Shown in pieces: positions 2,105-4,189 of a DNA stretch of 22,970 nt. This DNA is from a virus: UHGV virus genome UHGV-0259249; one strand, written 5' to 3'. Within the stretch, counting starts at the first letter, position 1. Each line of letters starts with the position of its first letter. The notes beneath the pieces are model-generated. The model did not search any database. It had not been told where the DNA came from and saw only the letters and a list, made by a program, of their open reading frames with translations. The position numbers and the translations under genes were made by a program.

Positions 2105-2146
2105 CGGGCCGCTGGTGGCCCTTTTTTATTTACAGGAGAAAAAAGT

Positions 2147-2539
2147 ATGTCTGAACCCTTATCCGGTTCCGGCACGGCTGCGGCGCTCGGTGGGGCGATG
2201 GTGTACGGGCTGTTTACCGGAACGGATTTCGGGATTGTGTTTGGTGCGTTCGCCGGGGCGTTATTTGTGGCAACGATGCCGCAGGCGCTTTCAGCCTGGC
2301 GTGTGGCGGCGCATTTTCTGGTGTCGTTCATTATCGGCGTGCTGGGCGCAGAGGTTCTGGCATCCTGGCTGGTAAAGCATACAGAGTTTGACGGTGCACC
2401 TGTCGACGCATTGTGTGCAGTACTGGTGTCAGTGGTGTCGGTGAAGATTCTCTCGTTCATCCACCAGCAGGATATTGCATCGCTGGTGTCCGGCCTGTTC
2501 TCCCGCCTGCGGGGTGGAGGAGGCGGCAATGTTAAGTAA
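2147..2539 (+). CDS. holin-like multi-TM membrane protein (130 aa)
   Basis: ATG 2147 preceded by AGGAGA. Gly/Ala-rich hydrophobic segments (GAMVYGLFTGTDFGIVFGAFAGALFVA; HFLVSFIIGVLGAEVLASWLV; LCAVLVSVVSV), charged C-terminus, placed immediately upstream of the endolysin. Family not identified with certainty. Confidence 0.55.
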   Translation: MSEPLSGSGTAAALGGAMVYGLFTGTDFGIVFGAFAGALFVATMPQALSAWRVAAHFLVSFIIGVLGAEVLASWLVKHTEFDGAPVDALCAVLVSVVSVKILSFIHQQDIASLVSGLFSRLRGGGGGNVK

Positions 2540-2807
2540 CATTCCCGGATTACTGAATGTGGCGTTATGCACGGTTATCGTGCTGACGCTCTTTTTTTAT
2601 CGTCGCCGTGATTCCAGACATAAACCGCTGATGTCATGGCTGGCCTGGCTACTGATGCTGCTTTATGCCTTTGCACCACTCAGCTATCTGTGTGGTCGCC
2701 CGTTAGCGGCGAACTGGCTGGCGGTGGGGCTTAATCTGCTGTTCTGCGTGTTGGTGATTCGCGCACGCGGGAACGTTTCAAAAATCTTTGTATTACGAAG
2801 GCGCTGA
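2529..2807 (+). CDS. second holin/antiholin-like membrane protein (92 aa, ~3 TM)
   Basis: ATG 2529 overlaps the end of the previous gene; GGAGG upstream. Three hydrophobic segments and an Arg-rich C-terminal tail (VLRRR). Stop TGA 2805-2807 lies 1 nt before the endolysin start. Confidence 0.5.
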   Translation: MLSNIPGLLNVALCTVIVLTLFFYRRRDSRHKPLMSWLAWLLMLLYAFAPLSYLCGRPLAANWLAVGLNLLFCVLVIRARGNVSKIFVLRRR

Positions 2808-2808
2808 T

Positions 2809-3354
2809 ATGAAGTCGAAAGATGAAATTTTTGACGAAGTTCTGGGAAAAGAGGGCGGTTACGTCAATCACCCGGATGATAAAGGCGGACCGACAAAATG
2901 GGGTATTACTGAAAAAGTTGCCCGTGCGCACGGATACCAGGGCGATATGCGTGATCTGACGCGCGGACAGGCGCTGGAAATACTCGAGGCGGACTACTGG
3001 TATGGACCACGTTTTGACCAGGTGGCAGCGTTATCCCCTGATATTGCCGCAGAGTTGTGTGATACGGGCGTGAACATGGGGCCAACCGTGGCGTCAAAAA
3101 TGCTTCAACGCTGGCTTAACGTTTTCAACCTGCGCGGGAAACTGTATCCGGATATGGATGCTGATGGACGCATCGGGCCGCGTACTCTTAATGCGCTACG
3201 GGCATATATGAAAAATCGTGGCAGGGATGGCGAACTGGTCTTACTAACCGCGCTGAACTGTACGCAGGGTGACCGTTATCTGGAGCTGGCAGAGAAACGC
3301 GAGGCCAACGAGTCGTTTGTCTATGGCTGGATGAAAGAACGCGTGGGAGTGTAG
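2809..3354 (+). CDS. endolysin: glycoside hydrolase family 108-type N-terminal domain plus PG_binding_3-type peptidoglycan-binding domain
   Basis: ATG 2809 (GAAGG 8 nt upstream; the track's 2788 start is TTG). 'EGGYVNHPDDKGGPTKWGIT' matches the GH108 catalytic signature; 'DADGRIGPRTLNALRAY' is typical of the associated PG-binding domain. Confidence 0.85.
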   Translation: MKSKDEIFDEVLGKEGGYVNHPDDKGGPTKWGITEKVARAHGYQGDMRDLTRGQALEILEADYWYGPRFDQVAALSPDIAAELCDTGVNMGPTVASKMLQRWLNVFNLRGKLYPDMDADGRIGPRTLNALRAYMKNRGRDGELVLLTALNCTQGDRYLELAEKREANESFVYGWMKERVGV

Positions 3355-3428
3355 TTGAAATTCCACTTTTCAATGAAGTCGGTAAATCCACTTTGCAGAT
3401 AGCACGACATTAGACTTACTGAAAAAGC

Positions 3429-3467
3429 AAAACCCCGGCTGGGGGAACAGTCCGGGGTTTTCTGTTT
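3429..3467. terminator. intrinsic terminator after the endolysin (possibly bidirectional)
   Basis: ACCCCGG(3432-3438)/CCGGGGT(3452-3458) stem followed by TTTTCTGTTTC; the complement also ends in a T-rich run. Confidence 0.5.
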
Positions 3468-3530
3468 CTGACCTTGGGTAAGGCAAAGTAGAACATGAGG
3501 AAGTATAAACCAATTCTGTTGAGGTTGACT

Positions 3531-3677
3531 ATGAAAAACGGCCTTGAATTGAAAGCGCCTGTAACTGATGACATCAGCAGAGCGGTGGCTTTTGCCATTA
3601 AGTGGGTGGCTGTCGGTATCGCTGTGTCTCCGATTCTGTATGGGATGGCAAAATTGATCATTGCTGTGAAATCGTAA
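3531..3677 (+). CDS. small membrane protein (48 aa; alternative start ATG 3495 gives 60 aa)
   Basis: GAGG 7 nt upstream of ATG 3531. Polar N-terminus then a single hydrophobic helix (AVAFAIKWVAVGIAVSPILYGMAKLIIAV). No family recognised. Confidence 0.35.
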   Translation: MKNGLELKAPVTDDISRAVAFAIKWVAVGIAVSPILYGMAKLIIAVKS

Positions 3678-3694
3678 GTGGTGCGGGGGTAAAT

Positions 3695-3829
3695 ATGTCA
3701 GATAGCATCATAAAACTAGCGAGGATTCTCTGTGTGGTTGTTGGCCTTTCATTTTCAGTGATGCTGGTTGCCATTTTCATTGCTACTGCCTGGAGAGTCT
3801 TGAGCTTATCTGGATTGATTGGTGGATAG
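3695..3829 (+). CDS. small membrane protein (44 aa)
   Basis: ATG 3695 with GGGGG upstream. Sequence MSDSIIKLARILCVVVGLSFSVMLVAIFIATAWRVLSLSGLIGG is one long hydrophobic helix. No family recognised. Confidence 0.35.
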   Translation: MSDSIIKLARILCVVVGLSFSVMLVAIFIATAWRVLSLSGLIGG

Positions 3830-3859
3830 CTGACATGAGCCGAAAACACTGGACACAGA

Positions 3860-4015
3860 GTGCCGCGAACGGCGGCGAAATGGGCACTGGTAGCGATACT
3901 GGTGCCTTTTTTTCTGGTGGGATGCGTCAGCCTGGATAAGGCGCGCCAGCTTTTCGATACAGCTTCTCAGGTCTGTGAAATTGTCGACGGTGTTCGGCAG
4001 TGTATGCAGAACTGA
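3860..4015 (+). CDS. small lipoprotein (51 aa precursor; lipobox LVGC)
   Basis: GTG 3860 start found by hand (not in track). MPRTAAKWALVAILVPFFLVG|C has a positively charged n-region, hydrophobic core and lipobox Cys; the ~29-aa mature part has two more Cys. Weak RBS; the overlapping ATG 3835 frame stops early. Confidence 0.4.
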   Translation: MPRTAAKWALVAILVPFFLVGCVSLDKARQLFDTASQVCEIVDGVRQCMQN

Positions 4016-4189
4016 TCGCCTGTAAGAGCAGAATATTTTGCTGAAAAATGAAGGATGCGCCGGCGTCCGGAAAGCATGAAATTCTGTGTTTGTGGCTACT
4101 CAATAAAATAAATTCTTTCTGTCGCCGCGAATACTCAAATGTTGATCAGCGCCCGGGGCGGTGACGGGCTTCGATATCAGGAGAAGATA

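Follow-up and report, generated by a model that had tools for sequence, protein, structure and literature searches.

According to Kongari et al. (2018, PMC6139136), about 13% of the phages that infect Gram-negative hosts could be assigned no spanin, and how such a phage opens the outer membrane is the question raised by the lysis cassette of virus genome UHGV-0259249. The stretch analysed here (22,970 nucleotides in full length, hereafter the window) is a phiP27-like (Glaedevirus-type) Escherichia coli prophage. Downstream of its endolysin gene lie three short open reading frames (ORF1, ORF2 and ORF3), which the original prediction, made from the letters of the window, had grouped as one set of membrane-targeted products, a small lipoprotein with two membrane peptides as possible partners. 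We find that ORF3, the lipoprotein gene, has to be considered separately from the other two and, with a probability of about 0.5, we propose that its product is an outer-membrane lysis factor that acts without an inner-membrane spanin (i-spanin).

ORF3 (3860..4015, + strand) encodes a lipoprotein precursor, 51 amino acids (aa) long when read from its GTG codon, and matches phrog_7528, a family of unknown function (E 3e-30). The predicted signal peptide (3860-3922) runs up to the lipidated cysteine (codon 3923-3925) of the lipobox LVG|C; as described originally, two further cysteines follow in the mature peptide, which has 30 residues, and in relatives the lipobox and both of these cysteines are invariant. 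Using a scanner that detected the embedded Rz1 of all lambdoid control loci, ORF3 was the sole lipobox ORF across the six frames of the window. Since 27% of random windows of equal composition contain a lipobox ORF by chance, this pattern alone is weak evidence, and it is conservation that identifies ORF3 as real. The reading frame is intact in 84/85 related loci with a pooled ratio of non-synonymous to synonymous polymorphism (pN/pS) of 0.21; the mature region has a pN/pS of 0.16 at a normal synonymous diversity (0.18), the lipobox has a pN of 0 against a pS of 0.27, and the GC content of the gene (0.54) matches that of the phage.

The start read in the window is not the start of the family. 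Relatives encode a 60-aa product (MSRKHWTHRxPRTAAKW...), conserved at the protein level from an ATG equivalent to window position 3835, which is preceded by a Shine-Dalgarno sequence (AGGTG in the minimal cassette, GGTGGA in the window). A 2-bp deletion (ACACAC to ACAC, at about 3853-3857), seen in alignments with phiP27 and with E. coli STEC308, the closest complete genome (99.7% identity across 3360-4130), has shifted this native 5' end (3835..3859, + strand) out of frame in the window. Among 5,426 complete E. coli genomes no full-length match was found without the two extra bases, and the ORF3 copies examined in IMG/VR were in frame. GTG 3860, originally taken for a genuine start with a plausible ribosome-binding site, corresponds to codon 10 of the family form and has no Shine-Dalgarno sequence before it (ccgaaaacactggacacagaGTG). 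Judged from these alignments, the GTG start of the window stems from a private lesion or from an error of assembly, and ORF3 is probably poorly expressed or inactive in this copy, with its start unhooked by the deletion. The databases also contain three variant ORF3 products, one with an internal duplication of 10 residues (P0010), one fused to an N-terminus from an alternative frame (P0108) and one Ant-ORF3 fusion (P0245); all three are probably frameshift or gene-calling artefacts near (AC)n and T-run stretches.

The family is small and restricted to Enterobacteriaceae, with 140 clusters at 90% identity; it is carried by prophages in 248/5,426 complete E. coli genomes (about 4.6%), and its carriers include inducible Shiga-toxin phages; a species-level genome scan returned three loci only. 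A profile search of 1.84 billion representative proteins gave 23 clusters at 50% identity, nearly all of them small lipoproteins of the same family, and no link to a larger one. Two subfamilies share the lipobox, the motif (E/D)KAR..(F/L)..A..VC and a pair of cysteines 9-10 residues apart. Lipobox and cysteines are invariant even in subfamily B, at 58% identity, and both cysteines are present in each of the 23 representative clusters that keep the corresponding region, while V, A, T, G, S and E, but no D, occur at position +2. None of the three ORFs has a match in Pfam, NCBIfam or PADLOC, and literature searches by RefSeq accessions and PHROG numbers returned no paper. One ORF3 region, 93-94% identical, comes from a phage named for another host family (PP818812.1, Actinobacillus phage vB_Apl-pPE4); this is unexpected for a Pasteurellaceae host, and the phage looks like an E. 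coli phiP27-like one.

Every locus examined has ORF3 at the end of its lysis cassette, on the same strand. The order endolysin then ORF3, co-oriented, was found in 80/80 IMG/VR loci; in half of them (40/80) ORF3 directly follows an M15 endolysin gene, mostly after a gap of 20 nucleotides (nt) and with its own Shine-Dalgarno sequence. ORF3 keeps this position across no fewer than three types of holin and two of endolysin. A Phage_holin_8 gene precedes ORF3 in nearly all related loci, and cassettes of the holin_8 plus holin_3_7 type combine ORF3 with either an M15 or a GH108 endolysin; the GH108 enzyme of the window is exchanged for an M15 peptidase in relatives, with ORF3 retained. An Enterobacter locus (L171) has a lambda-S-type holin and an M15 endolysin before ORF3, and a Lelliottia locus (L170) has another holin and a GH108 endolysin whose stop codon ORF3 overlaps. 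The structural modules differ among the phages that carry the gene.

This is the place of an outer-membrane spanin (o-spanin). We compared ORF3 cassettes with cassettes that hold a true spanin pair, gathering distant holin_8/holin_3_7 cassettes by means of a Salmonella holin query. In 65 homologous cassettes an i-spanin and an o-spanin gene, overlapped or embedded, follow the endolysin (PHROG "Rz-like spanin" families 214/456 or 1026/1275, or lambda-type Rz/Rz1), and none of these cassettes has ORF3. Conversely, 84/84 classifiable ORF3 cassettes of the holin_8/holin_3_7 type are without such a pair, and no Rz was found beside an intact ORF3 in 160 loci. A phage with Rz/Rz1, GER2, had been considered as a case of coexistence and was rejected, its ORF3 copy being broken by four stop codons. 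The missing partner was not located elsewhere either: neither the window nor the whole 42.6-kb phiP27 genome encodes a type-II membrane protein with a tail of at least 40 aa.

The phiP27 homologue of ORF3 (20706-20861) has been catalogued as a separated o-spanin forming a singleton family, with 20348-20542 as its i-spanin (Kongari et al. 2018, PMC6139136), and the same authors allow that proteins of type I or other topologies act as i-spanins. ORF3 could accordingly be an ordinary o-spanin whose i-spanin is non-canonical (ORF1, ORF2 or a holin-like protein) or has gone unrecognised. The N-terminus of ORF3 is indeed homologous to that of a genuine o-spanin (see below), and in many loci a gene of the ORF1 family (ORF1b, a diverged ORF1) abuts ORF3, its stop codon overlapping the ORF3 start. 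We nevertheless consider an ordinary o-spanin very improbable. Nothing at all lies between endolysin and ORF3 in 40/80 loci, ORF1 and ORF2 are equally common beside a complete Rz/Rz1, and the N-terminal tail of ORF1 carries a net charge of +4, which by the positive-inside rule suggests a cytoplasmic location; a type-II membrane protein is lacking from all of phiP27. The published pair is itself doubtful: its combined periplasmic length (62 residues) is the minimum of 528 systems (PMC6139136), and its i-spanin (2670-2864 in our phiP27 locus, L003) starts with TTG and runs antisense to an ORF of 90 aa (2654-2926) that is the more plausible gene; it is present only in loci identical to phiP27 and absent from nearly all other ORF3 cassettes. 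On these sequence grounds we regard this i-spanin as spurious. In the RefSeq record of phiP27, the 'L32' coding sequence (20630-20785) is in another frame than the lipoprotein, which is unannotated there.

Comparison with spanin collections, as suggested originally, gave a divided answer. Residues 2-24 of ORF3 match the N-terminus of the phrog_456 o-spanin of a sister cassette (BLASTP E 7e-8; E 1.3e-4 for phrog_7528), in addition to the singleton of the Kongari catalogue, and no spanin family resembled the mature domain in Pfam, PHROGs or BLASTP searches. The N-terminal match suggests that ORF3 descended from an o-spanin gene. Thus, of the non-canonical spanin or outer-membrane lysis function first envisaged, the o-spanin position and listing of ORF3 stand, and the module of three ORFs does not. 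The gene itself was already known through the catalogued phiP27 copy; what is new is its missing partner, its either/or relationship with true spanin pairs, its partial o-spanin descent and the terminator embedded in it, which is described next. In the literature searched we found no paper on o-spanins without a partner.

A terminator-like hairpin (3877..3914, + strand; scan match 3882-3907) lies inside the signal-peptide codons of ORF3. It consists of an A-tract, an 11-bp stem, a GNRA loop (GCGA) and a run of seven U, folds at -24 kcal/mol (z -4.1) and spans codons 17-27 of the 60-aa form, encoding ...KWALVAILVPFF. Synonymous diversity falls to 0.047 in the hairpin, compared with 0.18-0.27 in its flanks, and rare codons, ATA among them, do not vary. 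Copies from Lelliottia (58% protein identity), Enterobacter, Citrobacter and Salmonella have almost the same nucleotides here, and so does the decayed GER2 pseudogene; across the alignment the stem is paired in 97.6% of cells, single substitutions mostly preserving the pairing. The structure is thus supported by its frozen synonymous sites, not by covariation. phiP27 encodes a Q-like antiterminator, and the hairpin would halt transcripts that are not antiterminated, so that ORF3 would be expressed solely from Q-antiterminated late transcripts. Such late-only expression would fit a product that is harmful to the host.

The hairpin also invites the opposite reading, in which ORF3 is the vestige of an o-spanin, the embedded terminator being what is truly conserved and the peptide having little or no function. 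The o-spanin homology is confined to the N-terminus, the hairpin is the most conserved stretch of the gene with its synonymous sites nearly frozen, GER2 keeps the hairpin in spite of a broken ORF, and the window allele has lost its start codon. A mere carrier of a terminator would nonetheless be hard to reconcile with the low pN/pS of the mature region at normal synonymous diversity, with a lipobox free of non-synonymous change, with the retention of both cysteines in subfamily B and in all 23 clusters that keep the region, and with a frame intact in 84/85 loci; we therefore judge a functionless vestige to be quite unlikely.

Small lipoproteins near phage lysis genes can also serve purposes other than lysis. 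The bor gene of lambda occupies the equivalent region, downstream of Rz/Rz1, and Llp and Cor are small disulfide-containing outer-membrane lipoproteins that mask receptors. ORF3 shares the size and the neighbourhood of Bor, Cor and Llp, and the interval between endolysin and terminase genes is a hot-spot for cargo. ORF3 might then be a lipoprotein unrelated to lysis, acting in receptor masking, in superinfection exclusion, the alternative offered originally, or in Bor-like lysogenic conversion. We find this unlikely. ORF3 has no sequence similarity to these proteins and no family match, and it travels with the holin-endolysin module, co-oriented with the endolysin gene, across phages with different structural modules, not with tail or receptor-binding genes. 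In the minimal arrangement it begins 20 nt past the endolysin stop, too close for a separate promoter to fit in, and it carries an internal terminator. Its GC content is that of the phage, it is mutually exclusive with spanins, and in GER2, the only phage with Rz/Rz1 that was examined, it has decayed.

Taken as an outer-membrane lysis factor, ORF3 would carry out or assist the last step of lysis, the breach of the outer membrane once the wall has been degraded by the endolysin. Lipoproteins without aspartate at position +2 are sorted to the outer membrane by the Lol system, and since ORF3 has none at that position its product would sit in the inner leaflet of the outer membrane, where its cysteines would be oxidised. 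Fusion of the two membranes in the manner of spanins is implausible on physical grounds for a peptide of 30 residues that has no partner. The tethered, amphipathic, disulfide-bonded helix might instead destabilise the membrane directly, or it might act through host factors in the way of colicin lysis proteins, an option suggested by their similar size and by the unusually conserved signal peptide of ORF3.

Each known device offers a partial likeness. Like the o-spanins (lambda Rz1; phrog_456/phrog_214), ORF3 has a lipobox, no aspartate at +2 and cysteines in its mature part, and it closes the lysis cassette after the endolysin; unlike them, it has no i-spanin gene adjacent, overlapping, embedded or elsewhere in the phage genome, and its mature part of about 30 residues is predicted to be helical instead of proline-rich and extended. 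With the unimolecular spanin gp11 of T1 it has in common that a single gene with an N-terminal lipoprotein signal fills the spanin slot, but it has no C-terminal transmembrane helix, no hydrophobic segment past the signal peptide, and too little length to cross the periplasm. The disruptin gp28 of phiKT, also a small single candidate for replacing spanins, is described as a cationic protein resembling antimicrobial peptides (bioRxiv 10.1101/515445). ORF3, predicted to be lipid-anchored and with a mature net charge of -1, differs from a disruptin, and its chemistry is not that of the disruptin-like factor first considered.

Colicin lysis proteins and entericidin B are made as precursors of about 45-52 aa that give mature lipopeptides of about 27-33 aa and act alone on the envelope, colicin lysis proteins in dependence on outer-membrane phospholipase A (pldA); in one case the stable signal peptide is functionally important. 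ORF3 matches these dimensions, and its signal peptide is unusually conserved, but its sequence is different, it has two cysteines, and it belongs to a phage late operon, not to a colicin operon; searches against Pfam, including the colicin-lysis and entericidin families, gave no match at E of 1 or below. A more specific proposal can be put forward tentatively, and we hold it with distinctly less confidence than the lysis function as such: phiP27-type phages, including those converting for Stx2e and Stx2k, may possess a third kind of outer-membrane device besides spanins and the cationic disruptin, a lone disulfide-bonded lipoprotein of about 30 residues, which would have derived from an o-spanin by loss of the i-spanin and would now work by itself like colicin lysis proteins, with a possible contribution of the cleaved signal peptide, and which the terminator in the signal-peptide codons may keep silent until Q-dependent late transcription.

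Several observations weigh against ORF3 being an outer-membrane lysis factor that acts without an i-spanin. The mature peptide is too short to span the periplasm, so that the well-understood mechanism of spanins is ruled out for it. Its amphipathicity is no more than moderate (hydrophobic moment 0.40-0.49, shuffle p 0.04) and its charge is slightly negative, and AlphaFold2 models ORF3 as a single helix of low confidence (predicted local distance difference test score 68). Conservation peaks in the signal peptide and hairpin, not in the mature domain, so that part of it may serve the RNA element, for which, in turn, the alignment contains no double compensatory change and the shuffle control was uninformative. 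Mutual exclusivity with spanins is partly phylogenetic, many of the loci being close relatives, and the allele of the window itself is frameshifted at its 5' end. Finally, the support for all three ORF families comes from sequence analysis.

ORF1 (3495..3677, + strand; phrog_1115, unknown function, E 4e-32) encodes 60 aa, or 48 aa from an internal in-frame ATG at 3531, with the hydrophobic segment at the C-terminus in agreement with the original description, and ORF2 (3695..3829, + strand; phrog_4906, unknown function, E 2e-19) encodes the hydrophobic single-helix peptide of 44 aa that had been noticed there. Both are intact in 20/20 related loci, with pooled pN/pS of 0.40 (ORF1) and 0.18 (ORF2); together with the value for ORF3 these ratios are comparable to those of the neighbouring holins (0.23-0.31). 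The reality of the ORFs is settled by such intact conservation at low pN/pS in relatives, and by this measure all three are genes under purifying selection. Conservation was thus confirmed for each ORF and not for the trio.

ORF1 and ORF2 have a distribution of their own. Of 80 loci with ORF1, 41 are phiP27-type cassettes with ORF3 downstream and 39 are lambdoid cassettes with a complete Rz/Rz1; as read from their sequences, these lambdoid loci contain a phage-21-type S holin, the R lysozyme, ORF1, ORF2 and a complete Rz with embedded Rz1. A single module with membrane peptide partners is contradicted by these counts and by the 40/80 loci in which ORF3 stands alone, and from their equal frequency beside a complete Rz/Rz1 we conclude that ORF1 and ORF2 are neither spanin subunits nor dedicated partners of ORF3. 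ORF1, ORF1b and ORF2 each occur singly (ORF2 is without ORF1 in L183), and in one phage (L007) the order of ORF1 and ORF2 is reversed. A resemblance of ORF2 to a relic of the Rz transmembrane helix was dismissed, the match covering only 9 residues.

Both genes are poor in GC (0.443 for ORF1 and 0.430 for ORF2 vs 0.53 for the window), and the interval that they occupy between endolysin and ORF3 is filled differently across loci: by ORF1 and ORF2, by ORF1b, by a 93-aa ORF, by the antisense 90-aa ORF in phiP27, or, in Salmonella and Enterobacter, by a P22 Ant-like gene. Among these occupants, the P22 Ant-like antirepressor gene (L168 4444-5004; L172 4441-5004), the 93-aa ORF, which is rich in cysteine (L004 2473-2754), and the antisense 90-aa ORF (L003 2654-2926) were noted with their positions. 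The comparison of loci identifies the interval between the endolysin gene and the outer-membrane lysis gene as a cargo hot-spot, and ORF1 and ORF2 as independently moving low-GC cargo, separate from ORF3.

The 5' edge of the ORF1/ORF2 insert is formed by an intrinsic-terminator hairpin (3429..3467), which had been recognised originally and which folds on both strands, each with a U-tract: on the + strand at -26.3 kcal/mol (z -2.9), followed by UUUUCUGUUU, and on the - strand at -27.9 kcal/mol (z -3.6), followed by UUUUGCUUUUU. In a lambdoid locus (L002) a terminator stands in the matching place with a different stem sequence. The promoter scan found no sigma-70 promoter on the + strand for ORF1 or ORF2, so that the classic cargo layout of promoter, gene and terminator is not shown for them. 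A promoter-like site is present on the minus strand (TAGTCA-18-TATACT, 3531 to 3502), within the first codons of ORF1, facing the two-way terminator at a distance of about 30-70 nt; it is also found in lambdoid copies such as PhiR12_3, and in 11 loci a change of AAG to AAT turns its -10 hexamer into TATAAT. Such a site could, as a reading of the sequence, yield an antisense transcript of about 70 nt that covers the ribosome-binding site of the long form of ORF1, in the manner of a type I toxin-antitoxin system. The Shine-Dalgarno sequence of this long form is AAGGAG-N5-ATG in most relatives and weakened to AAGTAG in the window, that of the short form is GAGG-N7-ATG, and the long form adds four positive charges; the two starts, each with its Shine-Dalgarno sequence (3480-3533), recall dual-start holins.

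We read ORF1 and ORF2 as small inner-membrane peptides, with accessory functions in lysis timing or toxin-like activity as candidate roles. On one reading ORF1, and perhaps ORF2, would be a toxin-like or holin-modulating inner-membrane peptide, possibly under antisense control, that tunes the timing of lysis or stabilises the prophage. Small hydrophobic single-helix products, the minus-strand site facing a two-way terminator both here and in PhiR12_3, its TATAAT variants and the two in-frame starts all speak for it, and Lcc6 of LambdaSo is a precedent for a small membrane protein as an extra lysis factor (doi 10.1101/2024.01.23.576932). ORF1 and ORF2 resemble Lcc6 and Hok/Sok as phage-encoded single-helix peptides of 44-65 aa, and ORF1 shares with Hok/Sok a possible antisense promoter and two starts. 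Unlike ORF1 and ORF2, Lcc6 has its gene at a distance from the lysis genes and its helix at the N-terminus, and no homology of either ORF to Lcc6 or Hok/Sok was detected, nor a match to Hok or any other toxin family. Furthermore, the promoter-like site agrees at 9/12 positions only and has an 18-nt spacer, and the conservation of its nucleotides could equally reflect the Shine-Dalgarno and start region of ORF1. We consider such a toxin-like or holin-modulating function doubtful, though worth keeping in view.

The cassette that ORF3 closes opens with two holin-like genes, a Phage_holin_8 gene (2144..2539, + strand; PF16931 E 8e-22, phrog_198 holin) and a Phage_holin_3_7 gene with three transmembrane segments (2529..2807, + strand; PF05449 E 3e-21, phrog_217), followed by the endolysin gene (GH108 plus PG_binding_3, 2809..3354, + strand; PF05838 and PF09374, E about 1e-26) and by ORF1, ORF2 and ORF3. 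Upstream, the 5' end of the window holds a fragment of a DNA methyltransferase gene and two tRNAs, then a TerB-family gene and a DUF3927 gene. The latter two, of which DUF3927 encodes a two-helix peptide, occupy the slot 3' of the tRNAs (1483-2125) where phiP27 has stx2e, and a terminator-like hairpin (2106-2121) follows them just 5' of the first holin gene. Downstream of ORF3 come a phiP27 L33-like gene and then terminase, head and contractile-tail genes. A block beginning AGCAGAATATTTTGCTGAAAAATG... (4027-4086) lies 3' of ORF3 in the window and 3' of the R lysozyme in the lambdoid PhiR12_3 (L002 2386-2445), and homology between the window and PhiR12_3 stops exactly at the common ATGAGCCG start of Rz and ORF3. 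In their sequence context, the AGCAGAATATTTTGCTGAAAAATG block and the ATGAGCCG boundary look like joints of mosaic recombination.

These data bear on the opening of the outer membrane by phages in which no spanin can be recognised, and homologous cassettes that end either in a spanin pair or in a lone mini-lipoprotein provide a natural comparison. The terminator within signal-peptide codons represents an unusual overlap of RNA and protein constraints. If ORF3 alone complements a spanin defect, it would be a new minimal disruptor of the outer membrane, relevant to toxin release and to engineered lysis; if it fails to do so, the published spanin assignment of phiP27, the i-spanin half of which already looks wrong, needs revision.

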